Positions 22,515-49,357 of a stretch of 64,000 bases of DNA are shown in pieces. How positions within the stretch are numbered: position 1 is the first letter of the stretch; each line of letters opens with the position of its first letter. This DNA comes from an uncultured candidate division Zixibacteria bacterium (GTDB taxonomy: Bacteria > Zixibacteria > MSB-5A5 > UBA10806), in NCBI GenBank assembly GCA_963817915.1, contig CAWFQL010000003.1, forward strand, positions 64,001-128,000, given 5' to 3'. The notes under the pieces are model-generated. The model was not told the origin of the DNA, made no database searches, and saw only the letters and a list, made by a program, of their open reading frames with translations. The position numbers and the translations under genes were made by a program.

Positions 22515-23993
22515 TCACTCCCCGGAATCGTATTCCTTCTTCGCTTGTTGCGCTAATCTATATAATTCCCAGTACGGCGGGCGATAGCCGTTGGTAGTCT
22601 GAAATTGATCGGCGAGCTGAAGGACGCGCGCTTTGATTTTCGCGTGCATCGATGATAGGTACTTATTCCGCAAGGCGCTTTCGGCATTCATGCCTTCGGG
22701 TACCGGGCCGATCTTATTGAATCGATTCAATATCCAGCAATAGAGCTTCATCACTCTGCCAACCGGCAATAGGAAACTATTGTATTTCAATCGTTCGCCT
22801 TTGTCCGCGCCTTCCAGCAAGGCATCGATAACCGCATTGTCGACATGATCCTTATATAACGTTTCGATATCGCGCCATTCTGCCACAACCTTGACCTGCG
22901 GATCGTATTCCAAATCCGATGGCGCCTGCGTATCGAAGTGAGTCACCCCGAATGCCGCAAGCCACGAGACCACACCCGGCGATGATATATGTGTCAGCTT
23001 CGACCACAATGTTATGCCCGCCTTTTTATATGGATCATAGACCACCTCAGAACAGAACATTTTTTTATCATCATTGGAATCCATAGCGAAATCGTAGGGG
23101 ATATGCCTGTTTTTGGCATCGTCCAGCATCGCTTTTGCGACTTTATGAGGAAGCATCGGATCGGCCTTTAATTGGGGCAAATCATGCCGAAGCCTAAGCA
23201 CCATTACACGGAGCTTTTTGTCATTGAGATAATCCTGCAATGACGCTATCGCGACACCTTTTTCAATATGCGATTCGATTATCGAGGCGATACTTGTCGC
23301 CGAATCCACATAGACCAAGGCGGCATGCGAGAAATTGCCTTGAAAATTATTTCCTCTGGCAATCAAAGCCGATGTTGGCGCGCCGCCCCGCGATATCAAA
23401 ATATCGCCGCTGTGGATTGTCACGCCCAATATGCGAGTGAAGGGTGTCGCCGATGGTTCATCCGAACATTGCAGTAATGGCGCTAGCGAATCCGGAGACC
23501 GTTGAAGCATGATCTCTTCCAGTGCCGCCCTGGCCCCGTATAGCAGACGATAAATCGATATTTGCGCCGCGGTCGAACTCATGTCCCAATTCAATGATTG
23601 CGTTTTGATCACATTTCTGAGCCTGACTACGAATGATTGATAATCATTAAAATGCTCCGGAAACGCCCCAATCATCACTGCCGACGAAAAAGCATTTTCT
23701 TCAAGCCGTGTAAATAACGGTGAATCTGCCGTCGCGTTAAAAGTTGAAATGGAATCAAGTAAACTGTTTCCGTTATTCAGGCTCCAGATAATCGTCGGCG
23801 CCAATTTCTCTGATCCGATCGATTTGCATTTCAGGAATTGCTTTTCGAGCTCTTGCCAACGGTCATCTTGCTTCCATTCGAATGGCTGTTTTTCGCTGCC
23901 CTTTTCAATTACTGTTTCAGGGATGGGGATCAACAGGACAAGATATAATAGAGCCAAAGAGATTAGGCCGATTTTTGCGATTTTCCGAATCAC
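22515..23993 (-). CDS. Permuted papain-like NlpC/P60 amidase (YiiX/YebB-like), membrane anchored
   Basis: GDILISRG..S..I..FSHAALV precedes YDF..D..MFCSEVV (His before Cys). Confidence 0.82.
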   Translation of the reverse strand: MIRKIAKIGLISLALLYLVLLIPIPETVIEKGSEKQPFEWKQDDRWQELEKQFLKCKSIGSEKLAPTIIWSLNNGNSLLDSISTFNATADSPLFTRLEENAFSSAVMIGAFPEHFNDYQSFVVRLRNVIKTQSLNWDMSSTAAQISIYRLLYGARAALEEIMLQRSPDSLAPLLQCSDEPSATPFTRILGVTIHSGDILISRGGAPTSALIARGNNFQGNFSHAALVYVDSATSIASIIESHIEKGVAIASLQDYLNDKKLRVMVLRLRHDLPQLKADPMLPHKVAKAMLDDAKNRHIPYDFAMDSNDDKKMFCSEVVYDPYKKAGITLWSKLTHISSPGVVSWLAAFGVTHFDTQAPSDLEYDPQVKVVAEWRDIETLYKDHVDNAVIDALLEGADKGERLKYNSFLLPVGRVMKLYCWILNRFNKIGPVPEGMNAESALRNKYLSSMHAKIKARVLQLADQFQTTNGYRPPYWELYRLAQQAKKEYDSGE

Positions 23994-24386: not shown

Positions 24387-26441
24387 ATGTTTTCGTTAGG
24401 ATTAATTTTGGAGCTGGTGATAGCGGCGATAATTATCTTCGTCGTCTTTATATTGCCATCGATCAGGAATATCGGTCCGACAGAAGTCGGATTGGTCATC
24501 AAAAGATTTTCAGTGAAGAAGCTGCCGGATGATAACCCCATAGCGTTCAGGGGCGAGGCGGGCTACCAGGCGGATCTGCTTATGCCGGGATTCAGATTCA
24601 AATTCTGGGTGCTTTATAGTGTGGAGAAATTTCCCTGGGTGCAGGTGCCCGCCGGCGAAATCGGGGTTGTGATCGCGCAGGTCGGACAGCCTTTGCCGAC
24701 AGGAGCCAAATCGGCCATCTATAAAAAAGAGCATGGCGATTTTACTCGGCTCAGAGAATTTGTCACCAATGGCGGCCAAAAAGGCGTGCAGCGTCCGGTC
24801 CTGGCTCCTGGTACATTGGCGCCGATTCATCCGGTCGGCTTTATGGTCATAACAAAAGAAAAGGTTTACGGCGTGCCGGTTGCGCCCGAGTACAAACGAT
24901 TGGCTGACAAAGGCCAGCTAATTCCGATGTCATTCGGGCTTGAGCCTGATAAGCTCGATGTTACCCGTATTCAACCTCGAAAAGTGTCACTGCTTCCGCC
25001 CGGTGTCGATGACCCCAAGATCGATCGCGCCAGAATCGACGAACGAGCTCGAATAGTCGATATGGTCGGCATCGTGACCGTCTATGAAGGTCAGCCGTTG
25101 GAGTCCGGTGATATCGCCAGTCGTTTGGGTGGATTCAAGGATATCGAAGAACTCGAAAGCCAGCCCAATATCACCGATTTCCAATTGCAGGAAAAACTGC
25201 TTGGGAGCAAGAATCATCTTCATAATAACTATCAGGACTTTCAGGCATTCTTAGACAATGGCGGCAAAATCGGGCTTCAATATGATCCATTGCTTTACGG
25301 CGCGTACACCATAAATCCATTTCTCGTGTCGGTCGAGTTAGTGCCGATGTTGGTTGTTGAGCAAGGGCAAGTGGCCGTTATTAAATCCTATGTCGGCTTG
25401 CCGACCAAAGACACATCGGGAATCGAATTCAAGTATGGCTCGCTGGTCCGCCCCGGAAGGAGAGGTATCTGGCAGGAGGCGCTCAGGACGGGCAAGTATC
25501 CGATTAATCCGCATTGCTATGTCGCCGAAATCGTGCCGACAGCGATTTTAACATTGAACTGGGCCGAGGCGGTTTCGCAAGCGCATAATCTTGACCGCAA
25601 TCTCAAACAGATCACTGCCAAGAGCAAAGAAGGATTTATTTTTGATATCGATTTGCAGGTGCAGATTCATGTGCCCGATACCAAGGCTCCGCGCGTAATA
25701 TCGATGGTCGGTACGATGCAGAATCTTGTCAATGAGGTCTTGCAGGCGGCTGTCGGCAATCATTTCCGCGACAAGATTCAGAGCATGCCGGCGGTATCAT
25801 TTATAGAGACCCGTCAGATGGTGCAGGAGGATGCCTTCAGGCATATTTCGAATAAGCTTTCGGAATATCAGGTAGAAACCAAAGGCGTCTATATCCAGGA
25901 TGTCATATTGCCGGAGGCATTGGTCGCGGTGCTGACACAGAGAGAAATCGCCAATCAGCAAATCGATACATTCAAGAAGCAAAGAGAATCGCAGGAGCAG
26001 CGTATTCTCATGGAAAATACCAAAGGCACTGCCGATATGCAGGCCGAATTGGCGAAATCGAAAGTTGAAATCAGCATCAAGGGCAATAGAGCCGATGCCC
26101 GCAAGGCCGAGGCCGATGGCGAATCGACCTATATCGAAAAGACCGGTACTGCTCAAGGCGCCAAAGTAAAAGCTATTGGATTAGCCCGAGCCGAGGCGTT
26201 CGAACGGCAAGTATCGGCGTTGGGCCAGGTGCCGACCGCGATTGTCAATACGATTACCGCTCTGGCTGAGAATGGCGTCAAGATAATGCCGGATACATTG
26301 GTAACCGGTGGTGGCGGCGCACTCGATGGAGCATTGGCATCGCTGATGGCGTATTTGCGTCCACAACAATCTTCCGCACCAACCGTGTCCAAGAAAAAGC
26401 AGGCCGCATCAGAAAGCGCCGAAGGCAAAGATTCAATGTAA
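24387..26441 (+). CDS. SPFH/band-7 (flotillin-like) membrane protein
   Basis: N-terminal TM, repeated beta modules, SPFH core (SKEGF..LQVQIHV..RVISMVGT), Ala/Glu coiled-coil tail. Confidence 0.85.
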   Translation: MFSLGLILELVIAAIIIFVVFILPSIRNIGPTEVGLVIKRFSVKKLPDDNPIAFRGEAGYQADLLMPGFRFKFWVLYSVEKFPWVQVPAGEIGVVIAQVGQPLPTGAKSAIYKKEHGDFTRLREFVTNGGQKGVQRPVLAPGTLAPIHPVGFMVITKEKVYGVPVAPEYKRLADKGQLIPMSFGLEPDKLDVTRIQPRKVSLLPPGVDDPKIDRARIDERARIVDMVGIVTVYEGQPLESGDIASRLGGFKDIEELESQPNITDFQLQEKLLGSKNHLHNNYQDFQAFLDNGGKIGLQYDPLLYGAYTINPFLVSVELVPMLVVEQGQVAVIKSYVGLPTKDTSGIEFKYGSLVRPGRRGIWQEALRTGKYPINPHCYVAEIVPTAILTLNWAEAVSQAHNLDRNLKQITAKSKEGFIFDIDLQVQIHVPDTKAPRVISMVGTMQNLVNEVLQAAVGNHFRDKIQSMPAVSFIETRQMVQEDAFRHISNKLSEYQVETKGVYIQDVILPEALVAVLTQREIANQQIDTFKKQRESQEQRILMENTKGTADMQAELAKSKVEISIKGNRADARKAEADGESTYIEKTGTAQGAKVKAIGLARAEAFERQVSALGQVPTAIVNTITALAENGVKIMPDTLVTGGGGALDGALASLMAYLRPQQSSAPTVSKKKQAASESAEGKDSM

Positions 26442-26867: not shown

Positions 26868-26896
26868 TTGTCCGAATCCGATTTTTCCGCTATAAT
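26868..26896 (+). promoter_or_regulatory. Sigma-70 promoter of the multiheme cytochrome operon
   Basis: TTGTCC-N17-TATAAT. Confidence 0.6.
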
Positions 26897-26932: not shown

Positions 26933-27838
26933 CTGCAGGTAAGACGTGACGCTACTGGGGCCGAGGGGAAATCAAGGTACAGATTACTTATAAGAATTGT
27001 CCATATTGTCGCATTAATAATATTCGCGGTCTTCCTCTTCCAGGGCATTTCTTATTATCTGGCGCCGTTTTCCCAAAGGCCTCATTTAGAAGATTATAGG
27101 ATTTTGCGACCGGCGGCGATCTATGGCCATACGTTCGGAGTCGTAGGCTCGTTCTTTATGATTTGCATGTTGTCGTATACTCTAAGGAAAAGGATCAAGC
27201 TATTCAAGAATTGGGGATCGATCGGCAAATGGCTCGACATTCATATATTTCTCGGTATCTATGGTCCATTGCTTGTGATTTTGCATTCGACCTTCAAGGT
27301 GCAGGGATTGGTTGCTGTCAGCTTCTGGTCGATGGTTGCGGTCGCGACGAGCGGAATATTCGGTCGATATCTATATCTACAGATCCCGAGGAATATCCAC
27401 GGCGACGAACTCAGCGTCAAGGAGCTCGATGAAATGAGCCAGGGGTATTACGATAAATTGAAAAATGAATTTGGCTTTACCGATGAAACATTAAAGAGCC
27501 TGAAAGAGCATAGTACTTCTGGAATAGATAAGAGCGTAGGTCCGGCAATGGTACTCTGGATACTTATTAAGGACGATATAAAGCATATATTCTCGGGGCG
27601 AAAGGAACAGAGAAAATTGGCGTCGAAGCTGAATATACCGCGCGAAGCAATATCTCGATTTCTTAAATCTAACCGCCGTCAAAATCTTCTCGAGCGAAGA
27701 ATAGCCCTTATGAATGGGGTTCAGCAGATGTTTCATTACTGGCATGTAATTCATAAGCCGTTCGCGTTCGTAATGTACATAGTAATGTTAGTGCATATAG
27801 TAGTGGCAGTCTGGACAGGATACAAATGGATATTCTAA
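26933..27838 (+). CDS. Inner-membrane cytochrome-b / ferric-reductase-like protein
   Basis: Several TM helices with His residues (WLDIHIFLG..ILHSTF; WHVIHKPF..VHIV). The frame is open upstream of the tracked 27104 start and adds another TM; CTG at 26933 follows an AGGGGGT RBS. Confidence 0.75.
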   Translation: MQVRRDATGAEGKSRYRLLIRIVHIVALIIFAVFLFQGISYYLAPFSQRPHLEDYRILRPAAIYGHTFGVVGSFFMICMLSYTLRKRIKLFKNWGSIGKWLDIHIFLGIYGPLLVILHSTFKVQGLVAVSFWSMVAVATSGIFGRYLYLQIPRNIHGDELSVKELDEMSQGYYDKLKNEFGFTDETLKSLKEHSTSGIDKSVGPAMVLWILIKDDIKHIFSGRKEQRKLASKLNIPREAISRFLKSNRRQNLLERRIALMNGVQQMFHYWHVIHKPFAFVMYIVMLVHIVVAVWTGYKWIF

Positions 27839-29577
27839 GACATATTATTCGAAGAGATATCGGTCGATCAACTGTAGTTACTGCGGTCCGCTGGATAAAA
27901 ATTCTTGTATATATTCTACTGGTATCATTTATTCTGGCATCTTCAGACGCCTTCGCGCAACTCTCACCCGGTAAATTATCAAAAGCGCATTCTGACCTCG
28001 AAGGTGTTGAGCACTGTAGTCAATGTCATGACTTTCAAGAGAAGTTATCGTCGGACAAATGCTTGACCTGTCACAAGACGCTTGGTGAACGAATAAAAGG
28101 CAGCAAAGGGTTGCACAGCAGACCAGAGTATTCACAATGTCAGACATGTCATATCGAGCACCAGGGACGCGATTTTCAGTTGGTTTACTGGAAAGATGGA
28201 GAGCAGAATTTCGATCATACATTGACAGGATATACATTAGAAAATAAGCATGTCGGCCTTAAATGCCGCAAGTGCCATTTGCCGCAGAATATTAAGAATA
28301 AAGAAATTATGATAAGCGATAAGACAAATCAGGATCACACTTACCTCGGGCTTGATAAGGAATGTAATACTTGTCATATCGATAAGCATCGAGGTCAGTT
28401 CAAGGATTCCTGCCAGAAATGCCATAATACGACCGGTTGGAAGCCTTTATCGGGATTCGATCATTCTAAGACAAATTACATTTTGACCGGCAAGCATATT
28501 GATGTTAAATGCGGCAAATGCCATCCTGAGATAGTCGACAATCGTTCATTGGAAGATAGCTCGTACGCTAAATTTGCCGGAGTGGCCTACAAACAATGTC
28601 TCGATTGCCATCAGGATATTCATAAAGGAAAATTCGGCCAGACCTGCGAAACATGCCACAATACCGGCGGCTGGATGAGTATCGCCCATAACAAATTTGA
28701 TCACAATAAAACCAATTATCCATTATTGGGAAAGCATATCACTGTAATTTGCGAGAAATGCCACAAACCGGGAAAACCGCTCAAGGGATTGAAATATAAT
28801 AACTGCGCGGATTGTCATAGCGATTATCACGTTGGGCAGTTTGCGAAAGCGGCGACAAGTCTAAAGTGCGAAAAATGTCACACAGTTTTTGGTTACTCGC
28901 CTTCTAAGTATACTATCGCCAACCATGATACCAGCGGATATCCGTTGGCGGGAAGCCATTTGGCAGTGCCCTGTATTTTGTGCCATATGAAAATTAAAAT
29001 GGCCGATGGTAGCGATAATGTCAGATTCAAGTATGATTCTGCTCATTGCAAGGATTGCCATAAGAATCCGCATAAGGACCAGGTCGATAAATATCTGAAG
29101 GGGGATGGATGTGAATTTTGCCATAAGGTCGATAGTTGGAAGAAATCGACTTATGATCACGCCAAGGCGAAATTCGCTCTCGAAGGCAAACATATTAAAG
29201 CGGATTGTGTCGTCTGCCATAAACCAGTAAATGGTGAGAAGTCGGTTTATCAATTCGCGGGCTTGCCGAAAACCTGTCAGGAATGTCATAAGGATATTCA
29301 TCAGGGCCAATTTGCCAAGGCAGTTAAGGTGAAAAAGACCGAGCAGATGCTGACCGACTGCACTCGTTGCCATACTCCGAATTCATGGAAGGCCGAGAAA
29401 TTTGACCATGCTCGCGATTCAGTATTCAAGCTCGATGGCGCCCATCTCAAGGTAGTATGCGGCGGCTGTCACAAGAAGAAGAAGATTGATGATGTTGAAT
29501 ACGCGGTTTATAAGCCATTGGAAGTAACTTGCAGCTCATGTCACGCCGGCAAGAATTTTCAGAGTACCGGGGGATAG
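27826..29577 (+). CDS. 20-heme c-type cytochrome, Lys-rich, secreted
   Basis: Signal peptide ending AFA-QLSPG; 20 CxxCH counted; FDH..T.Y.L.GKH repeats. Confidence 0.92.
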   Translation: MDILRHIIRRDIGRSTVVTAVRWIKILVYILLVSFILASSDAFAQLSPGKLSKAHSDLEGVEHCSQCHDFQEKLSSDKCLTCHKTLGERIKGSKGLHSRPEYSQCQTCHIEHQGRDFQLVYWKDGEQNFDHTLTGYTLENKHVGLKCRKCHLPQNIKNKEIMISDKTNQDHTYLGLDKECNTCHIDKHRGQFKDSCQKCHNTTGWKPLSGFDHSKTNYILTGKHIDVKCGKCHPEIVDNRSLEDSSYAKFAGVAYKQCLDCHQDIHKGKFGQTCETCHNTGGWMSIAHNKFDHNKTNYPLLGKHITVICEKCHKPGKPLKGLKYNNCADCHSDYHVGQFAKAATSLKCEKCHTVFGYSPSKYTIANHDTSGYPLAGSHLAVPCILCHMKIKMADGSDNVRFKYDSAHCKDCHKNPHKDQVDKYLKGDGCEFCHKVDSWKKSTYDHAKAKFALEGKHIKADCVVCHKPVNGEKSVYQFAGLPKTCQECHKDIHQGQFAKAVKVKKTEQMLTDCTRCHTPNSWKAEKFDHARDSVFKLDGAHLKVVCGGCHKKKKIDDVEYAVYKPLEVTCSSCHAGKNFQSTGG

Positions 29578-29579
29578 GT

Positions 29580-32500
29580 ATGAAAAAGTTTTTTGCGATA
29601 ATATCTGCCATAGCTGTTGTGTTGTGCGGTGTACTTGTTTTCAGTCAGGAGCCGACAGCAAATCCGCATGGCAAATTAAAATGGGAATGCAGCGCGTGCC
29701 ATAGCACCGATTCCTGGAAAATTACCAAAGCTCCAACCGGATTCAAGCATGCGGATACAGGGTTTGCCTTGCGGGGAGCGCACGATGTTACGGACTGCAG
29801 CGATTGCCACAAGGATTTGACATTTTCCCATATCGGCACGGCTTGCATAGATTGTCATACGGATATTCATCGCGGGCAATTTGGCAATTATTGCGAAAAA
29901 TGCCATCTGCCCGATAGCTGGCAAAATCGCCAGGAGCAGTTAGGCTTGCATTCATCGCGCGGATTTCCATTGATCGGTATTCATTCGATAGCTGATTGCG
30001 GCGCATGTCATGTAGGCCAGCAGCGAAATGAGTATTCCGGTACTCCGATTGAATGTATTGGCTGTCATCAGGGTAATTACGCCTCCACTACCAACCCTAA
30101 TCATGTGCTTGCTAAATTCAACACGGACTGCCGCGAATGTCATAACGAATCCGCGAGTTCATGGAAAAATGCTACCTATGCGCATCCGTCGATATTCGAA
30201 ATCCATGGAGCGCATGTTGGTCTCGAATGTGTCAGATGCCATGCAGACTAGCGTTCGCGGGCACGCCAAGGGAATGTGTCGGCTGTCATTTGCCGGCTTA
30301 TCAAACGGCTAATAACCCGCCGCATGCCGTGCCGGTATTCCCGGAAGATTGCGTCATGTGTCATAACGATATTCAATGGATGGGAGCGACATTCAACCAT
30401 CTTCAGGCCACAGGCTACGAATTACTCGGAGCTCATGCGACGGTGCATTGCAACGATTGCCATACCAATAATAATTATGTCAATATTCCTAACCAGTGTT
30501 TTGGGTGCCATCAGAATAATTATAATGAAGCGGCTAATCCCAATCACCAAACAAATAATTTCGATCACGATTGTACCGTCTGCCATAACTTTAATGGCTG
30601 GTCTCCTTCGACATTCAATCATAGCGCAACCCGATTCGCTCTTACCGGAGTGCATCTAACAACACAATGCGTAGCCTGCCATACCAACGGCTACCAGAGT
30701 ACTCCGATGGATTGTTACAGTTGCCATCAAAACAATTATAATTCGGCGACAAATCCCAATCATGCGACCAATAATTTCAATCACGATTGCACGCAATGCC
30801 ATAATACCGCCGGATGGTCGCCATCGACATTTAATCATAGCCAGACCAGGTTCACATTAACCGGCGCGCATTTGACTATCCAGTGTGTTGCCTGCCATGC
30901 TAATGGCTACCAGAATACACCGCTGGATTGTTATAGCTGCCACGTTAATAATTTTAACGGAGTGACTGATCCCAACCACGTGACCAATAATTTCAGCCAC
31001 GATTGCACCCAATGCCATTCTACGGTCTCATGGTCAGGCGGAACATTCAATCATAGTCAGACGCAGTTCCCGTTGACCGGCGCCCACGCTACAATACAAT
31101 GTATAGCATGCCACGCCAATGGTTACCAAAACACGCCGACGGATTGCTATAGTTGTCATTTGAACGATTTTAATGGGGCGACTAATCCCAATCATGTCAC
31201 CAATAATTTCGGCCATGATTGCACCCAATGCCATTCCAATACAGCCTGGTCGCCTTCGACATTCAATCATAGCCAGACACAATTCCCACTTGACGGGCGC
31301 TCATGCGACAAGGCAGTGTATTGAATGCCATGCCAATGGCTACCAGAACACTCCATCAGACTGCTATAGCTGTCATCAAAGCAATTTTAATGGTGCGACC
31401 AATCCTAATCATGTGACCAATAATTTCAGTCATGATTGTACGCAATGTCATTCGACTTCCGTCTGGATACCATCGACTTTTGATCATAATCAAACCAGAT
31501 TTCCATTAACCGGTGCCCATATATCTCGGCAATGCGTTGATTGCCATGCTAATGGTTACCAGAATACCCCATTTGATTGCTATAGCTGCCATCAAAGCAA
31601 TTTTAACGGCGTTAGCGATCCTAATCACGTCACCAATAACTTCAGCCATGATTGCACGTTATGCCATTCGACTTCAGGCTGGTCACCGGCGACTTTCGAC
31701 CATAACTCGACCAGATTCCCATTAACCGGACGGCACATTGGCCTAAATTGTGTTGCCTGTCATGCCAATGGTTATCAGAATACTCCATATGATTGCTATA
31801 GCTGTCACGTAAATGATTATAATGACGTAAATGATCCGGACCATAGGGCCAATAATTACAGCCATGATTGCACGCAATGTCATAATACATCGGGATGGGG
31901 TAATGGTACATTCAATCATAATCCGACGAGATTTCCATTGACCGGGGCGCACGTGAGCCTGCCATGTATTTCATGTCATGCCAATGGTTATCAGAATACG
32001 CCTTACGATTGCTATGGATGTCATCAGACTAATTATAATATGGTCCCGGACCCAAACCACGTGCAAAATAATTTTAATCATGACTGTACGCAATGCCATA
32101 ATACTTCAGCCTGGACACCGGCATCATATGATCATAGCCAAACAAGATTCCCGTTGACCGGTGCCCATGTTGGACAGACATGTGTTGCCTGTCATGCCAA
32201 TGGCTATAATAACACGCCATTTGACTGCTTTAGCTGCCACACAGGTAATTATAATTCGGCTACTGATCCCAACCATGTGACCAATAATTTTGACCATGAC
32301 TGTACGCGATGTCATACATACTAGGTCTGGTCGCCTTCGACATTCAGCCATGGCTCGACAAGATTCCCGTTAACCGGCGCGCATGTTCCTCTTCAATGTA
32401 TTTCTTGTCACGCCAACGGATATCAGAATACACCGTTGGATTGCTACAGTTGCCATGTGGGCAATTATAATTCGGTTACCGACCCCAACCATGTGACCAA

Positions 32501-34083
32501 TAATTTCGACCATGATTGTACCCAGTGTCATACGACATCGGTCTGGAATCCATCGACATTTAATCACAGCTCGACCAGGTTCCCCTTAACTGGCGCGCAC
32601 AATACGCTGCAATGCATTTCGTGTCATGCCAACGGATACCAGAATACGCCGTTGGATTGTTACAGTTGCCATGTCGGTAATTATAATTCCGTTCCGGATC
32701 CTAATCACGTTACCAATAATTTCAGCCATGATTGCACTCAATGCCATACAACTGCGGGCTGGACTCCGGCGAATTACAATCATAGTCAAACGAGATTTCC
32801 GTTAACTGGGGCGCATGTAAATCTTGCCTGCGTGGCCTGCCATGCCAATGGCTATCAGAATACGCCGTTCGATTGCTATAGCTGCCATCAGAATAACTAC
32901 AATGGCGTCGTCGATCCCAATCACAACACCAATAATTTCAGCCACGACTGCACAGTATGTCACACTACATCCGGATGGACACCTGTATCGTTCAATCACG
33001 GATTGACGCAATTCCCGTTAACCGGGGCGCATGTAAATCTTGCCTGTGTTGCTTGTCACGCCAATGGATACCAAAATACGCCTATGGATTGCTATAGCTG
33101 TCACCAGAGCAATTATAATGGTGTTACGGATCCTAATCATGTCACCAATAATTTCAGCCATGACTGTACTATCTGTCATACGACCACAGCCTGGAATCCT
33201 TCGACATTCAATCACGGGCAAACCCAATTCCCGTTAACCGGCGCGCATGTGAGTCTTGCCTGCATATCCTGTCACGCCAATGGGTACCAAAATACGCCTA
33301 TGGATTGCTATAGCTGTCATCAGGGCAATTATAACGGTGTTACGGATCCTAATCATGTCACCAATAATTTCAGTCACGACTGCACCGTATGTCATACTAC
33401 TTCAGCCTGGACTGCCCGCGACATTTAATCATGGCACGACCAGATTCCCGTTGACCGGTGCGCATGTAAGCCTGGCCTGTATAGCCTGCCATGCCAATGG
33501 CTATCAGAATACGCCTTTCGATTGCTATAGTTGTCATCAAAGCAATTTCAATGGTGTCGTAGATCCAAACCACGTCACCAATAATTTCAGCCATGACTGC
33601 ACCGTATGTCATTCTACTTCGGCTTGGTCGCCGGCGTCATTCAACCATAATCAAACACAGTTCCCATTGACCGGAGCGCATACTACACTGCAATGTGTCG
33701 CCTGCCACGCCAATGGATACCAAAATACCCCGACTGCTTGTGTCAGCTGCCATCAGGCCGATTATAATGGCGCCACAAATCCGAATCATACCGCTCAGGG
33801 ATTTCCCACGCAATGCCAGCAGTGTCATACAACCGCTAATTGGACGCAATTAACTTATAACCATAATACTCAATATTTCCCAATTACTACCGGAAGGCAT
33901 GCTACCGTTTGGTCAACCTGTGCTACCTGCCATAATATTCCTGGAAATCTTGCGCATTTCGAATGTATCCTCTGCCATGAGCACAACCGCTCTGACACAG
34001 ATTCACAGCATCAGGGTAGGTCGGGTTATCAATATCTAAGCACTGCGTGCTACGCTTGCCATCCCAGAGGCAATGCCGGTTAG
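29580..34083 (+). CDS. Giant ~1500-aa multiheme cytochrome c with 61 CxxCH (reconstructed across three frameshifts and one in-frame TAG)
   Basis: One signal peptide (MKKFF..FS-QE). The repeat register continues across breaks at ~30250, ~31290, 32322 and ~33414. CxxCH counts per segment: 8+14+15+1+14+9. Confidence 0.82.
30600..33840 (+). repeat. ~15 tandem 216-bp coding repeats (72-aa triheme unit)
   Basis: Unit FNH..TRFPLTGAH....C..CHANGYQNTP.DCYSCH..NYN...DPNHVTNNFSHDCT.CH....W.P; copies differ at synonymous sites. Confidence 0.93.
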
Positions 34084-34092
34084 GTGTAGTAT

Positions 34093-34896
34093 ATGTCTGG
34101 CATGCGTATAATACTCATTATGGCAATTAGCCTTGCCACGGGAGTTCCCTGCTATTCACAGGAGAATCCTCATCGAGACTCCAAGCTCGATTGCCAGGAA
34201 TGTCATACCGCTTCAAGTTGGACCGATATCAAGTTTGATCATCAGAAGACCGGTTTTGTGCTCGATGGAAATCATTTGGAGGTTCCCTGCGTCTCATGTC
34301 ATTCATTGGTTGATTTCAATATAGTTTCAAAGGAGTGTGTTTTTTGTCATGTTGATATTCATCAGGGGAAATTGGCCCGTACTTGCGAACAGTGCCATTC
34401 GACAAGGGGATGGAATATTTTCAATACAACAAGAGCGCATGCGAATACGACATTCCCTCTGATTGGCGCGCACGCAAAGCTCGATTGCCGTTCCTGCCAT
34501 CTAAGCGAAATTGAAGGAGAGTATTCATTGCTTAAATCGGAATGTATATCTTGCCACGAGGCCGACTTTAATAATGCCCAAAATCCGTCCCATTCGGCAT
34601 TGGGATTCGGGACTCGCTGCAATGATTGCCATACGCTTTTATCCTGGCGCCCCGCCGATTTTTCACAGCATAATTCGTATTTTCCTATATATAGCGGGGC
34701 ACATGCCGGAAAATGGCGGAGTTGTTATGATTGTCATCCGACTCCGGGTGATTACGGAATCAGTACCATGACCTGTTTTTCCTGCCATGTTCATGACCAA
34801 GGGTCGACAGATTCTCGGCACCAAGAGGTCGCAGGATACGTTTATCAAAGCAGCGCCTGCTATAATTGTCATTCAAGCGGAAGCGCTGGAGGCTGA
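34093..34896 (+). CDS. 10-heme c-type cytochrome, short paralog of the giant cytochrome
   Basis: Signal peptide; 10 CxxCH; shares the NPH N-cap and FPI..G.H...W..GY.Y.S.ACY.CH..G C-cap with 29580..34083. Confidence 0.92.
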   Translation: MSGMRIILIMAISLATGVPCYSQENPHRDSKLDCQECHTASSWTDIKFDHQKTGFVLDGNHLEVPCVSCHSLVDFNIVSKECVFCHVDIHQGKLARTCEQCHSTRGWNIFNTTRAHANTTFPLIGAHAKLDCRSCHLSEIEGEYSLLKSECISCHEADFNNAQNPSHSALGFGTRCNDCHTLLSWRPADFSQHNSYFPIYSGAHAGKWRSCYDCHPTPGDYGISTMTCFSCHVHDQGSTDSRHQEVAGYVYQSSACYNCHSSGSAGG

Positions 34897-34906
34897 GAGG
34901 TCTAAT

Positions 34907-36517
34907 ATGAAGGGATTATTAGTCAAAATCCTTGCAACGATAATATTCGCGCTTATTTTCCGGGTTGGAGCGTCGGCCGCTATCCATGTCCAATATCTTT
35001 CCCAGGAAGCGGTCTATATCGATGCCGGAATCGAAGACAGCCTTTCAATCGGCGATCAACTCGAGATCAGAAAAGGCGACAGCCTTATTGCTCAATTAGA
35101 AATTATCTTCGCGTCCGAGCATTCGGCTTCCTGCAAGATACTTAATTCGACAGGTACAATCGAAATCGGGGCTACCGTAAATATCACTTCAAGGGCGATC
35201 GTGGCCAAGCCGGCCCCGGCAGATTCTGTTGCGGATACGACTGCGAAAAAACTTGAGCCTGCGCCAATTGCAGTTGCGCCAAAGCCTAAGAAAAATTCTA
35301 CCCATTTCAGCGGGACTATTGCCTTGCAGACTTATAATTGGAACGATATCACTTCATCGAATCTTGATTTCTCCCAGCCGTCGGCGAGAATAAATATTAC
35401 CGCCCTGAAACTCTGGGGCACCGAGCTTTCATTTACGCTAAGATCGACCATCCGCAATGAACGAAGGACCCGCAGCTATAGCAGCTCTGTTCCCAAAAGC
35501 GAATGGCGCAATAGGGTATACCAACTTTCAATAGGGTATTCGGATGACAACGGGCCATTCGGGTTTGAATTCGGCAGAATAATCTCGAATAAAATCAGCG
35601 GTATCGGATATATAGATGGAATCCTTGTCCATCGCAGGGTGAGCAAATTGGTCAATATGGGAGTATTTGTAGGGACTCAACCCCAATGGCAATATTCCGA
35701 TTTTCAAACTTCGATCCAGAAATACGGATTTTATACTAATTACGCGCGAGGCGAATATGCCAAATCTCGTTATGAAGTGACCCTGGCGGCCGCGGGCGAA
35801 TATCATAGCAATATCGTCAGCCGTGAATTCATTTATCTTCAGAATAATCTCATTATTAAGGGCGATTGGAATATTTTTCAGAGCGCGGAATTGGATCTTA
35901 ATCGCGGATGGCGTAAAGAAAAATCGAAAATAGGCACATCTCTAACTAACTTCTACCTTTCCACCAGGAAACGAGTTACTGGCTGGCTTTCGGCGAGCCT
36001 GAGCTTTGATTCCCGTAAAAACTATTGGACCTATGAAATTCGTTCGATGGCCGAGCAGCTTTTCGATAGCAATGTCCGGCGCGGAGGCAGAGCGGATATT
36101 TCGCTGAGACTGCCTGGCAATTTCCAGCTTCTCGCGGGATTTGGCTTGCGGAAACGGGCCACGGAATCGGGCTCTACCTATTCTTATTCTGGGGCATTGA
36201 ATAAATCCAATATCCTCAATTCAAAGCTGGACATAAATATTCAGATGTCGGGATTTACCAACCCGCTTACAAACGGGTATAATGTATCCACGACTCTCGG
36301 TCGCTATTTCGGCAGGGGGAACTACCTGAGTATTGGATACAGCGGATACGTATATTCGATCCAAAATGGCGGTCCAACCCGCAGTAATACCGCATATCAG
36401 CTAAGCTCAATGATAAGCATTATCAGATCCGTATATTTTTCCGGTCAATATGAATACGACACTGGGGATGATACCAAAGGCCATCGAATAGTAGCGGAAC
36501 TCGGTTATCGTTTCTAA
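34907..36517 (+). CDS. Outer-membrane beta-barrel (putative cytochrome-sheathing porin) with small N-terminal domain and Pro/Ala/Lys linker
   Basis: Signal peptide from ATG 34907; amphipathic beta-strands; terminal ELGYRF beta-signal. Confidence 0.8.
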   Translation: MKGLLVKILATIIFALIFRVGASAAIHVQYLSQEAVYIDAGIEDSLSIGDQLEIRKGDSLIAQLEIIFASEHSASCKILNSTGTIEIGATVNITSRAIVAKPAPADSVADTTAKKLEPAPIAVAPKPKKNSTHFSGTIALQTYNWNDITSSNLDFSQPSARINITALKLWGTELSFTLRSTIRNERRTRSYSSSVPKSEWRNRVYQLSIGYSDDNGPFGFEFGRIISNKISGIGYIDGILVHRRVSKLVNMGVFVGTQPQWQYSDFQTSIQKYGFYTNYARGEYAKSRYEVTLAAAGEYHSNIVSREFIYLQNNLIIKGDWNIFQSAELDLNRGWRKEKSKIGTSLTNFYLSTRKRVTGWLSASLSFDSRKNYWTYEIRSMAEQLFDSNVRRGGRADISLRLPGNFQLLAGFGLRKRATESGSTYSYSGALNKSNILNSKLDINIQMSGFTNPLTNGYNVSTTLGRYFGRGNYLSIGYSGYVYSIQNGGPTRSNTAYQLSSMISIIRSVYFSGQYEYDTGDDTKGHRIVAELGYRF

Positions 36518-36565
36518 AGTTGATATTCATAGAGATGTTTAGAATTCAGGATTTTGTGAGGTAAT

Positions 36566-37900
36566 ATGGAATCAGACGCAATCTGGATATTCACGGTAAT
36601 ACTCATAGTAAGTATTTCCGCCCCATATTTTATAAAATTTCGCAAACGCCAGAAAATGGATATCGAACGGCGGAAAGAGGCGGAAATCTTGGGCATCAGC
36701 AAGCCTTCCAGCCAATATCCGATGATCGACTCCACTCTCTGTATTGGCTGCCGCACCTGTGTCGATGCTTGTCCCGAGCATGATGTGCTCGGTATCGTAT
36801 TCGGCAAGGCAATGGTTATAAACGGCCAGCGTTGTGTTGGACATGGCTACTGCGAACTCGTGTGTCCTGTTGGAGCATTGAAAGTGGGACTCGGCGATAT
36901 CAAAACTCGTCCCGATATTCCAGTCGTAGATGACAATAACCAATCCAATATTCCGGGCCTTTTTATCGCCGGTGAATTGGCCGGTCTTTCGTTGATCAGA
37001 AATGCTATAGATCAGGGAAGACGGGTTATAGAAAAAATAGCCGAAAATAATAATCGCTCAGCCAATGAAAATATTTACGATGTCATAATAATTGGAGCTG
37101 GTCCGGCGGGGCTTACTGCCTCACTTAATGCGATCAAAAACAAACTTTCTTACCTTCTAATCGACCAGCAGGCTCCGGGTGGTACGATTCTTCAATATCC
37201 CCGACATAAATTGGTAATGACCCAGCCTGTGGAAATTCCCCTTTATGGCTGGCTCAAGAAAGAAGAGTATGCCAAGGAAGACCTGCTGGATATATGGAAT
37301 AAAATATTGAATGACTTCAAGATCAATGTTCGAGTGGGTGAGAAGATCGAATCTGTCAGAAAAGAAGCGGAAGTATTCAAGGTTAAATCGCTTGCGGCCG
37401 AGTATTCCGCAAATCATGTGGTGTTATCGATGGGTCGCCGGGGCACTCCCCGAAAACTTGGCGTAACCGGTGAAGATCTTCCCAAGACTCTCTATCAGCT
37501 GCTCGACGCGCAATCGTATAATAACAATCATATTCTTGTTGTGGGCGGCGGCGATAGCGCTATCGAAGCGGCAGTTGGTCTTGCGCATCAGACCGGAAAT
37601 AAAATCACGATTTCTTATAGAAAAAGCACATTTGCCCGTGTTAAGAAGAAAAATGAAGATCTTGTCAAAAAAGCTATCGCTGAAAAGAAAGTCAGAGCTA
37701 TTTTCAATTCGGAAGTTCTCGAAATCAGAGATAAGAATGTCAAACTAAAAGTAGGAGAAGACATAGTCGAAATACTCAACGATTTTGTCTTCGTGTTTAT
37801 CGGCGGCGAGCCTCCTATCAAAATGCTTAAGGAGATGGGCATATTATTCGGCGGCGAAGCGCCGGTTATCGAAGTTCCGCCTGTCCCGGCAATGTCTTAA
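36566..37900 (+). CDS. Membrane-anchored 2x[4Fe-4S] / FAD / NAD(P)H oxidoreductase (TrxR/YpdA-like fold)
   Basis: N-terminal TM; CIGCRTCVDACP and CVGHGYCELVCP; GAGPAG; GGGDSA..SYR. Confidence 0.88.
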   Translation: MESDAIWIFTVILIVSISAPYFIKFRKRQKMDIERRKEAEILGISKPSSQYPMIDSTLCIGCRTCVDACPEHDVLGIVFGKAMVINGQRCVGHGYCELVCPVGALKVGLGDIKTRPDIPVVDDNNQSNIPGLFIAGELAGLSLIRNAIDQGRRVIEKIAENNNRSANENIYDVIIIGAGPAGLTASLNAIKNKLSYLLIDQQAPGGTILQYPRHKLVMTQPVEIPLYGWLKKEEYAKEDLLDIWNKILNDFKINVRVGEKIESVRKEAEVFKVKSLAAEYSANHVVLSMGRRGTPRKLGVTGEDLPKTLYQLLDAQSYNNNHILVVGGGDSAIEAAVGLAHQTGNKITISYRKSTFARVKKKNEDLVKKAIAEKKVRAIFNSEVLEIRDKNVKLKVGEDIVEILNDFVFVFIGGEPPIKMLKEMGILFGGEAPVIEVPPVPAMS

Positions 37901-37922: not shown

Positions 37923-37957
37923 AAAAAAGGCGGCACTCAGGCCGCCTTTGAAAAAAA
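37923..37957. terminator. Probable bidirectional terminator
   Basis: A-run, AAAGGCGGC-actcag-GCCGCCTTT, between convergent genes. Confidence 0.75.
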
Positions 37958-37968: not shown

Positions 37969-40900
37969 TTACTTCAACAATAACATCTTGTTGGTTTTGG
38001 TGAAATTAGCGGTTTCGATTTTGTAGAAATAAAGCCCGGTCGCGACTTTTCGGCCCGATTCATCCTTGCCATCCCAAACAACCTGCTTATAGCCGGCAGC
38101 CTGTCTTTGATCCACAAGGTTTTTCACCTTCTGACCCATAATATTGAATACTACAATTCTCACTTCGGAATCGACCGCGAGCCCATAAGAAATCGTGGTT
38201 GAAGGATTGAATGGGTTCGGATAGTTTTGCGATAGGAAGAACTTCTTCGGAGCGGTGATATCATCGTTCAACCCTGTGATTGTCAGCGCCTTTCCAGAGC
38301 CGGCGGTTGATCCGAATGATTCGGCGGTTAGATTTCCTTCGGAGAATAGAGCGCTAACGTAATACCAATAAAGATTAGTATCGGCAAGATCAATATCCGA
38401 ATAGCTCGTTGCCTGAATCGGAGAATCGTTCAGCTTCGAAAAATCACCATTGGGCCAACGGCTTCTGTAAATATTAAATCCGGCGAGATTAGGATTCGTT
38501 AATGTATCCCAGCGAACCTCGATTAAATTAGAAATATTGTTCGATGCTGAAAGACTGGATGGTATCGGGCATCGAGTGAGATGTAATGTCTCCGTCTCGA
38601 TAAGCTGGTTGGCTACCACCTGGATACTTTCCTGATAGGCAGGGTAATATCCAAGGGCTTCGGCGGTGAGGCTTATTGTTCCGGGCGGTACTTCTTTAAT
38701 AAAGAACCTGCCATCGCTGGCTGAAATTCTCCTTTGACCTGTGCTCGCATGAATTTGAGCGTCGCCATTCTGGCCGCTTCCATCAAGATCGACACTTCCC
38801 CTTACTGAGCCGCGTCCGGTACTGGTGGTAATCAGCGTGACTGCGCCGTCAATCAAGGTCGCTCCTCCCGGAGCGTAATAATTGTCGTGCGTAAATTCCA
38901 GCCCGCGTTGTTCATCGTAGCTCTCGAATCCTACGGACGCGTAACCCTCTCCAGAGTCGGTGTTATTAACATCTCTGTAAATAAAAAGGATATCGGAATC
39001 GCCTGTAAGGCTCGGATAATAGGCTGGATCCATAATAACCATCTGGAATGTTTCGTACTGGAAGGTATTCGTATTGGTTAATTTCAACCACTCTATATAA
39101 AATTTATGGTTCACCGAATCATACCATTTGTAAACACCTAAGTGCGTTCCGTCAATTCTGAGATCATCCCAGAACGGCGAAATCTGTCCGCGCGCGTTAC
39201 CCGGGTCAGGAATTGGCCAATTGAAGAAGTTGGCCCAGTAATTTCCCTGCATATCCATTGGAGTAGTATCCAACGCTGCGAAACCATTGATACAAACTAT
39301 CATCGCCCCGTAATCTTGGCCATAATACTTCATGTTGAATGGCAATGTCACGAGAACCGATTTGTCATCCAACTCGGATCCATAATTCAAACGAGTACCC
39401 TGCCCGCCGCTATCCGGGCTGATTTCAACCCATTGATAAGTCGGCATCATTGCGTATGCGCTGTCCATACGATCATACATGTAATAGCCATAGGAATCCG
39501 GCCCAACCGGGTCCCTTGACGAAATTCGTCCAACTGTTAGTGTAAATGGAATCGATGACTTTGAACCCGAAAGGGTTGATATATGAAGAGTCAGATTTAA
39601 TTTTTTGCCCTTAAAGGCAGTCGAATCGCATGTGATACTGACGAGAGAACTGGAATTGTCGCCGGAGCCGCCGATTGAAATATCACCGAAATTGGCAATT
39701 GATCCAACGGCATTCGCATAATCATCATCGGTTGTCACAATACCGGTAACACCCTGGGCATTAAGCGATCCGCTATTGGATAAAAATATCTTGAGATTGG
39801 CTGTTTGACCCGGACCGATAAGGCTGTCACCCTCGGGGATTATAGCTCTGGTGACTGCGAATTTTGGAGCCTTTACCGGGAATTCGATCATAGTTTGCCA
39901 GCTGTCATTATTTTGGTCTCTGATTGTCAATTTCTGCCTGACAGTTTGACCATCGGAAGCGGCGGGATTTACATATACCACAAATGGCGCTTCTGATGCT
40001 CTCGATTCGCCCGGCGCCAGATTGCCGTAATTGCGAATACCGTCATAGACAACAGAATTCCCATCGGTTGATTCCAACTGCGCGGATACATTCGTAGCTG
40101 AAATATCCGTACCGAAATTCTTGATTGAGACATTTAATTCGATTGTCTCGCCAGGCGCGGCTAAATGATCGCCGTCTCCGTGAGAAAAGCCGTCGGTATC
40201 ATCATCGATATAAATGGAGTCCAATCCTACTGCCAGATCGGATGTCGCTATTTCCACATTGGTTTGGTAAGGAATAAGATTTTGTCCGGAAACGGTAAGC
40301 TTCATTGAGCCGGGAGTATTGGCGTCAAATATTAGCGTGACATTTCCCGATTCATCGGTTTTATCGACACTGAATACTTCTTCGGTTGTCCCAATAGTTT
40401 TGATCAATGTCACATATGCGCCTGAAATCGCGTTGCCCGCTGAATCTATCACTGAAGCATTAAAGCTGTTTGTTCCCAGTGCCACAGTATCGAGATGTGT
40501 AACGTTTATGCTTATTGGAATTTTAGTGCGTAATTCAAGTTCAGGATCGCCCAGCATATTATATGTATTGAAATATTGTTGTATCATTCCTCCCGGGGCG
40601 GTCTGTCTTGGGAATGTCCAGTAATCCTGAAGCTTTCCTCTCACTGCCGCGGCGGCAAAATGATAGACATTCTCTTCAAATATCCCGAAGAAATAGCCGA
40701 CCATAATGGGGTTATTCCATCTGGTATGGGTGTCGTGATCGGAAACCCCATAAAACGCCGGTCCGCCTTTCAAGCTATCAGGACTACGTCCCATTCTAAT
40801 CCAGGTCTCGCCAAAACATTCACCGCCGAAATCACCGGTGCCGCAAGTCAATGGAGACAGAACGCCAAGTTTTTGATTGTCCTGTAAATTGAGCAAATCG

Positions 40901-42285: not shown

Positions 42286-42658
42286 TTGACCTCCACTAAG
42301 CCTTAAAAAAATAAACATAAACATATCCCATAATTTTAGGCGAGAATATCCCCCCAGCGATTTCTCGTTTACCAATGGATTAAACAACTTAATCCGCTTG
42401 GCTCGTTCCACTAATATAATCGATAATTTTTTACTTAGTAAATTATGTCATTGAAATTTTGATTTAAATTGGGAAATTCTCAAAATTTGCAACCCCATTT
42501 TTGAGACTATTATTGAGTGGGCCGCCCACGTTAACCTGATGAATATTTTGCGGTTATGGAAATTATTGGCGGTTCATTTAATGCGGTGATAATTATACGA
42601 AATAGAAATGGGGCGAATAATGTTCGCCCCGAATTACTCCGACTATTGAAAAATCAGA

Positions 42659-48100: not shown

Positions 48101-49225
48101 CTACTGTGCGGTGTTGACAACATTATCATGGCATTGACGGCATCCGGCTGTTCTCATTTCCTCTGAGTTGTCCGCTGGATTCCATCTCATACCAAATGCG
48201 TTGGTGGAGCCGTGCGCCTGATGGCACGAGAGGCAAAAGACCTCGTTATTATAAGCTACCTGGGATGCTGCATTGAAATCATGCGCTTCCCTGACCAGGA
48301 ATGGCATACGTCCAACTGAAAATTCCGAGCCCTGACCATTATACCAATTTGTACTATCGGCTGTGTAAACCGGATCGCCGGGTAAGCCGCTAATCGGGCG
48401 ATATGCGCCATATTCGGTATTCGAGACTGGATGGCGGTTCCAATGGAAATCGAGATCGGGGTTTGTATATCGTCCACCATTTGTACCAGCATCCAATAAT
48501 GTGTGATGGCAATCGATACAGATATTGGTTACCTCACGCCAGGTTGGTTCGCCACCTGCATCGCCGGGCTCGCCGTACTTTACATTATCCTGCTGATATT
48601 TCTGAAGGCCTGTCGCGCCGGGATTCACAAATGCGACAATCGGAGGCTCGCCGCCGGGCCATGATGCCCATTGCAGATTGCGATAATAACCGGTGCCGTG
48701 AGGAGCATGACAATCAACGCAATCAACAGTTGCGGTCCTGAATTCTCCTCCAAAATGACATCTCAGACAAAGGTCGCCTGGAGCAGTCCCAATATTATGG
48801 CCATTGTCGTTGATAGCGCCGGGATCGCCGAATTGTCCCGCGGCCCGAAGGGTGCCGCCGTTGACATCGGAGCCCACAACGTCAGGGACATTAACTTTGT
48901 CTTGATGACAATTAAGACACAATGCCAACGCGCTCGTGGCTTTCAAAAGCTTGTTTGTCGGCGGTTCCATGACAAATGGATAAGTGAAGGGGTCCTGATA
49001 GCCATAATTATGCTGCATCGAGCCATGCATGACATGGCAATCGGAACAGACCAGGTCGGCGCCATTATGATAGCCGGGCGAAAATGGCGGCGTATCGAGA
49101 AGCATCCCGGGATTATGTCCGCCGCTTCCGGGTCTATGAATATCAATACCGTCCATCGGTCCGCCCGCCAACGCTACGGCGCTGACCAGGAAGAAAACAA
49201 CTGTGATGAGTTTACCCATACCCAT
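48101..49225 (-). CDS. Secreted 7-CxxCH cytochrome c with OmcS-like motif order
   Basis: YHNG..CSDCHVMHGS; CLNCH; GHNI; extra CLRCH; CVDCHAPHG..YRNL; CIDCH; RHP; MPF; CLSCHQAHGS; CRQCH. Start at 49225 or 49219 after AAGGAAGG. Confidence 0.85.
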   Translation of the reverse strand: MGMGKLITVVFFLVSAVALAGGPMDGIDIHRPGSGGHNPGMLLDTPPFSPGYHNGADLVCSDCHVMHGSMQHNYGYQDPFTYPFVMEPPTNKLLKATSALALCLNCHQDKVNVPDVVGSDVNGGTLRAAGQFGDPGAINDNGHNIGTAPGDLCLRCHFGGEFRTATVDCVDCHAPHGTGYYRNLQWASWPGGEPPIVAFVNPGATGLQKYQQDNVKYGEPGDAGGEPTWREVTNICIDCHHTLLDAGTNGGRYTNPDLDFHWNRHPVSNTEYGAYRPISGLPGDPVYTADSTNWYNGQGSEFSVGRMPFLVREAHDFNAASQVAYNNEVFCLSCHQAHGSTNAFGMRWNPADNSEEMRTAGCRQCHDNVVNTAQ

Positions 49226-49357
49226 ACCTTCCTTATCCGGAAATTTATTGGAAAAGAAATCCTTATTCTTCAACCAATTAATTATCATTATCTTTTCCCC
49301 ATCAAATACATGCTATCAAAAAAGCCGCAATATCCTAAGCTTGCCCTTTTGCCCCGT

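Follow-up and report, generated by a model that had tools for sequence, protein, structure and literature searches.

Organisation of the multiheme operon

A six-gene operon rich in c-type heme motifs is located on contig CAWFQL010000003.1 of an uncultured candidate division Zixibacteria bacterium (assembly GCA_963817915.1). The genome comprises 3.33 Mb in 22 contigs and is 93.9% complete. The window, i.e. the whole stretch of 64,000 nucleotides that was analysed, corresponds to C3:64001-128000, and coordinates refer to the window unless another contig or locus is named. The operon encodes the parts of a putative route that would lead electrons from NAD(P)H out of the cell, and it displays the following features:

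26868..26896, + strand: sigma-70-like promoter candidate, TTGTCC-17-TATAAT, matching the consensus at 10/12 positions
26933..27838, + strand: inner-membrane protein (IMP), 301 amino acids (aa), predicted diheme b carrier, putative CTG start
27826..29577, + strand: 20-CxxCH cytochrome c of 583 aa, with a signal peptide assigned by visual inspection
29580..34083, + strand: giant cytochrome c, 61 CxxCH, ATG at 29580, 216-bp repeats between conserved end caps
34093..34896, + strand: 10-CxxCH cytochrome c, 267 aa, minimal paralogue of the giant
34907..36517, + strand: outer-membrane β-barrel, 536 aa, from a predicted model
36566..37900, + strand: membrane-anchored flavoprotein, 444 aa, Fer4 and Pyr_redox_3 domains
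37926..37949: GC-rich hairpin between the operon and a convergent peptidase gene, terminator-like on the - strand

The gene boundaries, from 26933 to 37900 on the + strand, bear out the tight packing of six genes described in an earlier sequence-only reading of the window, with junctions that overlap or abut (27838/27826, 29577/29580, 34083/34093, 34896/34907 and 36517/36566). A six-frame count places 91 CxxCH motifs (20, 61 and 10) on the + strand from 28015 to 34872, the numbers being exactly those that reading had reported. Of the 102 such motifs in the whole window, 93 belong to the + strand and 9 to the - strand, and the operon cluster is far above chance. The same reading had enclosed the genes between one promoter and one terminator. 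Consensus matches are indeed present, but neither promoter-like sites (34 in the scan versus 28.9 +/- 5.3 in shuffled sequences) nor terminator-like sites (13 versus 10.7 +/- 3.5) are in excess, and the hairpin at 37926..37949, followed by only three T on the + strand, is called a terminator on the - strand only. Neither kind of site was given weight as evidence. Rfam returned 0 matches in positions 24000-40000.

The inner-membrane protein

The first gene begins at 26933 with CTG, preceded by AGGGGG, and no ATG, GTG or TTG is found before the TTG at 27104. The CTG start is plausible because homologues align from approximately residue 6, and it restores the first membrane helix present in them. 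The AlphaFold2 model displays five membrane-length helices (pLDDT 83), with a WX3HX13H motif on transmembrane helix (TM) 3 (H104/H118), a second on TM5 (H274/H288) and SGxxG on TM4. The four histidines, candidate ligands of heme b, are invariant in 65/65 homologues and the full motif set is retained in 64/65. The protein is predicted to bind two b hemes. From the basic loops after TM2 and TM4, its N terminus and a helical loop of ~115 aa are predicted to be cytoplasmic.

No ferric-reductase-domain protein was listed at a significant level in the fold searches with the IMP. By sequence, no solved relatives were found with the IMP or barrel profiles, and none was significant for the repeat of the giant cytochrome. 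The closest named relatives of the IMP and the barrel belong to candidate division Zixibacteria, while their atlas look-alikes are unnamed hypothetical clusters; annotation pipelines miss both proteins because no Pfam or NCBIfam family exists for either. Two apparent IMP fusions, P0368 (with part of Pyr_redox) and P0369 (with a cytochrome), carry stretches foreign to the family and have no second histidine motif; they were read as chimeric or frameshifted and left out of the count.

The flavoprotein

The last gene encodes, in order, an N-terminal TM helix, a 2x[4Fe-4S] ferredoxin domain, and FAD and NAD(P)H domains of the thioredoxin reductase (TrxR)/YpdA/ferredoxin-NADP+ reductase (FNR) type. 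The Fer4 and Pyr_redox_3 matches and the hydrophobic N-terminal helix substantiate its earlier designation as a membrane-anchored Fe-S flavoprotein. The eight Fe-S cysteines and the GxGxxG, GGGDSA and SYR motifs are all kept in 44/44 flavoproteins, and the hydrophobic helix in 42/43. In related enzymes the SYR motif, invariant here, marks a preference for NADPH. The hydride donor would be NAD(P)H, probably NADPH.

The best matches in the PDB (E values of 5e-24 to 1e-7) are YpdA, TrxR and TrxR-type ferredoxin-NADP+ reductases (7A7B, 7A76, 3LZW, 3AB1), which have the FAD and NAD(P)H domains in common with the flavoprotein. The YpdA/Bdr model TIGR04018 scores 172.6 bits against a cut-off of 339.9, and the thioredoxin reductase model TIGR01292 105 against 343. 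The loop cysteine of GGGPCG, which has a role in the bacillithiol disulfide reductase YpdA/Bdr, is present in 0/44 sequences; no CxxC was found in the flavoprotein, and positions 308-318 are without cysteine among the residues listed for 44 sequences. With scores under the cut-offs and the cysteines of these enzymes absent, assignment as YpdA/Bdr or TrxR was rejected, and for the same reasons the protein looks like a ferredoxin-NADP+ reductase fused to its own ferredoxin. Residues ~121-152 (36926-37021) resemble the C-terminal FAD-domain segment of YpdA (279-311), with a HMMER score that is not significant alone, hinting that the last FAD-domain segment is circularly permuted to this position. 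Thus, in contrast with YpdA/Bdr and TrxR, the flavoprotein lacks both the CxxC and the GxGPxG-loop cysteine, carries an added TM helix and ferredoxin domain, and appears permuted.

The cytochromes and the outer-membrane barrel

The 20-heme cytochrome comprises 29 aa per heme, and its heme number is almost constant in relatives. The giant cytochrome spans ~1,500 codons, in which the repeat unit of 216 bp corresponds to 72 aa and three hemes. The 10-heme protein has the same end caps (35-39% identity to the giant), and its gene is optional in relatives. The decaheme DmsE/MtrA model TIGR03508 scores 52 bits with the 20-heme and 16 bits with the 10-heme cytochrome (cut-off 192), and the OmcA/MtrC model TIGR03507 gives 19 bits (cut-off 209). 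All operon scores therefore fall under the cut-offs of the Mtr families and the barrel has no NCBIfam match; by these tests the operon is not of Mtr type.

The giant gene is split into five open reading frames (ORFs) by three frameshifts, a -1 shift between 30228 and 30275 (near 30250) and +1 shifts in 31220-31317 (near 31290) and 33381-33478 (near 33410), and by one in-frame TAG at 32322-32324. One CxxCH spacing is 47, compared with 48 at like positions, and two are 97 instead of 96. The 61 motifs of the secreted cytochrome reported previously are thus real, but they do not lie in one open frame in the assembly, a point that had been missed. Most probably the breaks are sequence errors of the assembly, because relatives are intact and 61 fits the length rule of the family. 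The count covers ORFs of loci L031-L111 that contain 8 or more hemes, end in a stop and match the patterns of both end caps; 48/48 of these intact capped copies carry 10+3k hemes (range 10 to 73), and 61 equals 10+3x17. Intact frames of 58 and 70 hemes occur in relatives, one of 61 hemes lies on a metagenome contig (L140), and a 64-heme frame is also intact. In 12 full-length repeats (12 of 14, the two with an extra base being excluded) the 31 invariant residues are all intact, with silent differences in 946/2046 codon pairs.

A separate question is whether the 61-heme gene is a young pseudogene in this genome, its job taken over by the intact 10-heme paralogue. The four breaks in 1,501 codons exceed the background expectation of 0.72 (Poisson p = 0.006), so early decay is possible; the backup paralogue adjoins the giant gene, and relative L021 has the 20- and 10-heme genes only. 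Decay nevertheless appears unlikely, given that single-base indels make up 3/4 of the breaks, that 61/61 CxxCH motifs and the invariant repeat residues are intact in a number that obeys the rule, and that breaks are also present in other genes of the assembly: 11/73 show a frame switch or stop relative to proteins of relatives, some of which faults may lie in the query. Near-identical repeats are difficult to polish. As to copy number, the barrel gene at L033:12867-20302 is flanked by 25- and 49-heme repeat cytochromes, and repeat cytochromes of 31, 22 and 10 hemes stand in tandem at L045:5314-10319.

The structure model of the outer-membrane protein folds as a β-barrel (pLDDT 88.5), as the sequence-only reading had anticipated. 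It comprises a small N-terminal β domain, a flexible linker, 22 predicted strands (from DSSP) and a C-terminal Phe. Fold matches cover residues 130-536 only and are closest to the 22-strand barrels of TonB-dependent receptors (Z score of 17.8 and root mean square deviation (rmsd) of 5.0 over 352 aligned residues). The match to MtrB, which has 26 strands, is weaker (Z score of 14.1 and rmsd of 6.5 over 330 aligned residues). A receptor-type plug was not matched in the fold comparison of the barrel model. The giant cytochrome may be extracellular and may lodge in the barrel.

Conservation and gene order

Of 261 confirmed genome loci the best 80, chosen with patterns from close relatives, served to assess conservation. 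The 20-heme gene follows the IMP gene in 77/80 loci, two of the misses being contig ends. The barrel is found in 56/80, and 23/24 loci without it have at most 5.5 kb of DNA remaining. The flavoprotein is present in 53/56 barrel-containing loci, while the other 3 end at most 39 bases from the barrel. Record titles of the loci name Zixibacteria, Calditrichota, KSB1, Acidobacteriota, Eisenbacteria, Latescibacterota and WOR-3. The IMP is present in 21/61 related genomes; in 20 retrieved regions the IMP, the 20-heme and larger cytochromes and the barrel occur wherever the region is long enough, and the flavoprotein gene stands at one end or the other of the row. Of 251 genomes sampled from the phylum, 77 contain a match to the flavoprotein, 74 to the IMP and 71 to both. 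Of the six flavoprotein-only genomes, three give partial matches and the others are assemblies in 180-720 contigs; the three IMP-only genomes comprise two distant IMPs and one 360-contig assembly. Against the refuting conditions that the sequence-only reading had named, its conduit and its flavoprotein link hold up: the genes are conserved together across both the 80 loci and the 251 genomes, the candidate heme-b histidines do not vary, and the predicted contact of IMP and flavoprotein adds weak support.

The position of the flavoprotein gene varies. It is the last gene in this operon, lies directly before the IMP gene in 13 of the 251-genome sample and directly after it in 4/22 metagenome loci and in Emticicia oligotrophica DSM 17448, where a plasmid carries, in order, ccsA, IMP, flavoprotein, 23- and 40-heme cytochromes and barrel. 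Distant IMPs were found on plasmids in 45 records, and the 2 distant ones inspected both follow a Fer2/FAD_binding_6/NAD_binding_1 protein of unrelated fold. At L124:3388-17000 a distant IMP (HH probability 97.9%) stands beside a 782-aa relative of the flavoprotein and 10-, 10- and 3-heme genes, a cluster that resembles PCC4 or the Table S6 layout of He et al. (PMC5566968). Distant IMP modules were also observed directly before a [NiFe]-hydrogenase operon on an Alteromonas plasmid (L112:6974-18663) and beside copper-resistance genes in Spirosoma.

Comparison with known electron conduits

The sequence-only reading had set the operon beside the MtrCAB and OmabcB conduits. With these, and their CymA, ImcH or CbcL partners, the operon shares a barrel with periplasmic and outer multiheme cytochromes, but no family match reaches a cut-off, the inner-membrane input is encoded in the operon itself and the cytochromes are much longer. 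To our knowledge, characterised Gram-negative conduits draw on the quinone pool.

The combination of IMP, ~20-heme cytochrome, giant cytochrome and porin matches instead PCC3, a hypothetical design of He, Barco, Emerson and Roden (2017) with two predicted b hemes and proteins of 63 and 85 hemes (PMC5566968), which in more recent texts is still unverified and comprises four genes (PMC10734462; bioRxiv 2025.02.27.639646). PCC3 has an IMP of ~300 aa and five helices with SGxxG and two WX3HX13H motifs, and all of these were found here in 301 aa. It also has a periplasmic cytochrome of ~20 hemes (median 21; here 20), a second, repeat-rich cytochrome of variable size (10-85 hemes; here 61) and a porin of at least 22 strands (here 22 in the model), and its 22-39 residues per heme compare with about 25-29 in the operon cytochromes. 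In contrast with PCC3, the first cytochrome has 20 hemes in most loci, an extra decaheme is optional, and the second cytochrome follows 10+3k, whereas extracellular PCC3 counts take any value (10-18, 26-35; PMC10734462). Carriers of the operon belong to Zixibacteria, Calditrichota, Acidobacteriota and Bacteroidota, whereas reports of PCC3 are from Proteobacteria. By layout and motif, set beside published descriptions, the operon can be likened to PCC3 with an input resembling that of NADPH oxidase (NOX).

In PCC4 and the porin-less clusters of Table S6, genes for redox proteins likewise adjoin that of an IMP bearing two HX13H motifs, but PCC4 has 4-, 5- and 10-heme cytochromes and no giant and, with 20, 61 and 10 hemes, the operon is not PCC4. 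He et al. noted other redox proteins beside related IMPs but modelled quinone exchange, and neither the names of those proteins nor an NAD(P)H input appears in the available text (PMC5566968).

The proposed input resembles the Fre/MsrQ/MsrP system and the NOX of SpNOX type, from the ferric reductase domain family (NOX/MsrQ/STEAP), in which NAD(P)H reduces a flavin, the flavin a b heme in the membrane and the heme an acceptor beyond the inner membrane, and histidine pairs 13 apart lie on TM3 and TM5. Here, in contrast, the donor is a TrxR-type fold with a fused ferredoxin and anchor instead of an FNR-family protein, the acceptor is a multiheme wire, and the IMP has no significant sequence or fold match to Fre, NOX or MsrQ. 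MsrQ receives electrons from NADH by way of Fre, and ubiquinone is ruled out as its donor (PMC12525009; PMC11031084); a quinone donor of MsrQ was first proposed and later disputed from redox potentials (PMC12525009).

Non-canonical porin-cytochrome clusters described in Ignavibacteria, Bacteroidetes and others lack the operon's gene set in the text available (PMC7399161, PMC6344600, PMC8258643). A peat preprint (bioRxiv 2026.05.27.727921) describes architectures EET1-4 with representatives of 8-13 hemes, and the operon was not equated with them, since such an IMP or flavoprotein is not named in the accessible part. The operon with its flavoprotein was not found described in a literature search conducted mainly outside subscription papers, in which 'HX13H' was found only in PMC5566968. 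A heme count this large has precedent, and it is the constant flavoprotein, the 10+3k rule and the existence of a cultured carrier that merit further work.

Proposed electron path

We consider it slightly better than an even chance that the operon supports a NOX-like export of electrons. Hydride from NAD(P)H, probably NADPH, would be accepted by the FAD of the anchored flavoprotein, and single electrons would move through the two [4Fe-4S] clusters into the IMP, entering at the inner member of its proposed pair of bis-His b hemes. The outer IMP heme would reduce the periplasmic 20-heme cytochrome and this, in turn, the repeat cytochrome, which, lengthened by three-heme modules (10 to 73 hemes) and together with the 22-strand barrel, would lead to the cell surface. 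The role would be low-potential export or overflow to metals, humics, oxidants or partner cells, and not the main energy-conserving respiration. Held more tentatively, at somewhat under even, is the full proposal of a self-contained, quinone-independent cable in which a permuted TrxR-type flavoprotein acts on a new diheme-b family and a porin-anchored cytochrome is tuned in three-heme steps.

Contact between the IMP and the flavoprotein was assessed by complex prediction with two hemes and FAD included, which scored 0.37 versus 0.00 for the best of 3 controls; the runs agree in >= 60% of contacts and partner pLDDT is >= 77. In a calibration without ligands the mark was reached by 116/157 solved complexes and 2/215 mismatches, and the range at or below 0.60 held 18/157 solved complexes and both passing mismatches. 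The direct NAD(P)H feed of the sequence-only reading is thus partly supported by the constant flavoprotein and by co-conservation, while the predicted contact, above its controls, adds weak support.

Several observations weigh against this path. The links of the IMP to the flavoprotein and to the cytochromes are by association, seen in genes alone; the loci are kin, so that counts are not independent, and the 80 loci and the genome samples are partly the same genomes. Locus L050, the third miss of the 20-heme gene, has an IMP without the remaining genes downstream and is a real exception, and relatives of the catalytic part of the flavoprotein occur without IMP or cytochrome nearby (L123 and L128, and also among glycosyltransferases). 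The pass of the complex prediction is weak, with three runs scoring 0.64, 0.37 and 0.22. For the IMP model, no significant structural match was found (best Z score of 8.6, to unrelated helical bundles); Foldseek returned nothing at E <= 0.001 (cytochrome b561 at 1.2 and SpNOX at 2.0), and the best Pfam matches lie below cut-off (cytochrome b561, 16.8 versus 30.1 bits). No lipobox or export tag was seen by eye on any operon cytochrome, and surface exposure is for this reason argued from the barrel alone. Two metagenome ORFs, with 33 and 9 hemes, violate 10+3k, and the excess of breaks in the giant gene belongs on the same side, as does the constant fifth gene for an anchored 2x[4Fe-4S]/FAD flavoprotein, which sets the operon apart from the four-gene PCC3 without flavoprotein.

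The input could instead be quinone-linked, as in PCC3, with the IMP exchanging electrons with (mena)quinol and the flavoprotein feeding the quinone pool, directly or via the inner heme, or being accessory. He et al. compared the IMP with cytochromes b that are active on quinones and proposed a reaction with quinone (PMC5566968), Gallionellaceae PCC3 is described with four genes and no flavoprotein in the available text (PMC10734462), and MsrQ co-purifies with quinone (PMC12525009); the first two of these also count against NAD(P)H feeding. UbiA-family genes are present in the Zixibacteria genome itself, together with modules of NrfD, cytochrome b/b6 and NapC/NirT type. A quinone link, however, leaves unexplained both the anchored, ferredoxin-bearing flavoprotein beside the IMP in three gene orders and the unrelated NAD(P)H flavoprotein next to distant IMPs. 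Other quinone-type cytochrome modules lie elsewhere in the genome, and MqnA, MqnC and MenB were not above cut-off in it at 93.9% completeness, which is a hint only. We regard a quinone-linked input as unlikely, at about one chance in five.

A NAD(P)H-fed system in which electrons stay in the envelope is rated somewhat lower still. The cytochromes, in the periplasm or bound to the surface, would then serve as a redox buffer or supply reductant, for oxidant or metal detoxification or iron mobilisation, and the barrel would be an anchor or a channel for small acceptors. The cytochromes without visible export signal and the closer likeness of the barrel to TonB-dependent receptors than to MtrB fit such a role, as do the porin-less distant IMP clusters already known (He et al. 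Table S6, PMC5566968). So do the cost of outward flow in membrane potential and the plasmid location of the operon in Emticicia, an aerobic genus. In contrast, the barrel occurs in essentially every complete locus beside the length-variable cytochrome, its model matches no receptor-type plug, and a rod of 50-70 hemes would probably exceed the width of the periplasm.

The direction of flow, which the sequence-only reading had called impossible to determine from sequence, is judged here on thermodynamic grounds: moving electrons out of the cell with no accompanying protons would draw on the membrane potential, as NOX does, and outward flow with an overflow or reductive role is favoured for this reason, clearly so over inward flow. 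In an inward mode the same chain would make NAD(P)H with electrons from a low-potential donor (mineral, electrode or partner cell). Such transfer to NAD(P)+ would run against the membrane potential and would need donors well below -320 mV, and Fe(II) cannot reduce NAD(P)+ without reverse electron transport. Porin-cytochrome conduits can nevertheless be reversible (PMC10734462), and PCC3 was first found in Fe(II) oxidisers (PMC5566968), with its genes expressed in Sideroxydans CL21 (bioRxiv 2025.02.27.639646). Inward flow is considered highly improbable.

Neighbouring genes and other heme modules

The genes flanking the operon are not kept in relatives. Upstream lie a C92-family amidase (22515..23993, - strand) and a 684-aa SPFH/band-7 protein (24387..26441, + strand), whose gene ends at a strong terminator-like hairpin (26466-26488). 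Downstream, and convergent with the operon, lies a gene for a secreted C25 (gingipain-family) peptidase of 1,480 aa with an FlgD-Ig/secretion-tail C terminus (37969..42411, - strand). A lone 7-CxxCH cytochrome (48101..49288, - strand) is found near a radical SAM gene, and long ORFs at 59041..60354 and 60209..61495 (+ strand) overlap by 146 bases, possibly representing a further frameshifted gene.

Elsewhere in the genome, a second large cluster lies at C17:236075-253500 (L114, L115). Its 42-CxxCH cytochrome is intact and belongs to the Paired_CXXCH family, and it is accompanied by genes for 5, 6, 7, 6 and 13 hemes, an Fe-S/NrfD pair and a 564-aa protein that lacks annotation. At C16:133870-137458 (L117) a 10-heme cytochrome, a 518-aa protein without Pfam family and a 6-heme cytochrome stand in a row, resembling a further porin-cytochrome unit. 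Modules of quinone type comprise an 11-heme protein with cytochrome b561 beside a 19-heme gene (C16:36122-40987, L116), NapC/NirT with 6 hemes (C19:7537-9051, L122), cytochrome b/b6 with 9 hemes (C16:190800-193196, L118) and NrfD with Fe-S and 8 hemes (C16 near 76700, L119). Cytochrome b561 with 11 CxxCH is CbcL-like in domain content, and NapC/NirT with 6 CxxCH is ImcH-like; quinone-fed routes may thus exist apart from the operon. Two cytochrome c assembly matches were also found in the genome.

Biological implications

The operon occurs in almost one in three of the phylum's sampled genomes and in several other phyla, and is common in poorly known phyla of sediment and soil. It offers a direct test of the 2017 hypothesis for the PCC3/PCC4 IMPs, which is aided by a cultured carrier whose plasmid holds both the cluster and a cytochrome c maturation gene, while the 10+3k series represents a natural set of heme wires of graded lengths. 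If wired to NAD(P)H, such operons would change which organisms count as electroactive, and their purpose would be overflow, reductive attack or syntrophy over ATP-yielding respiration. Fermenters and aerobes without known electroactivity could then export low-potential electrons, with the membrane potential helping.

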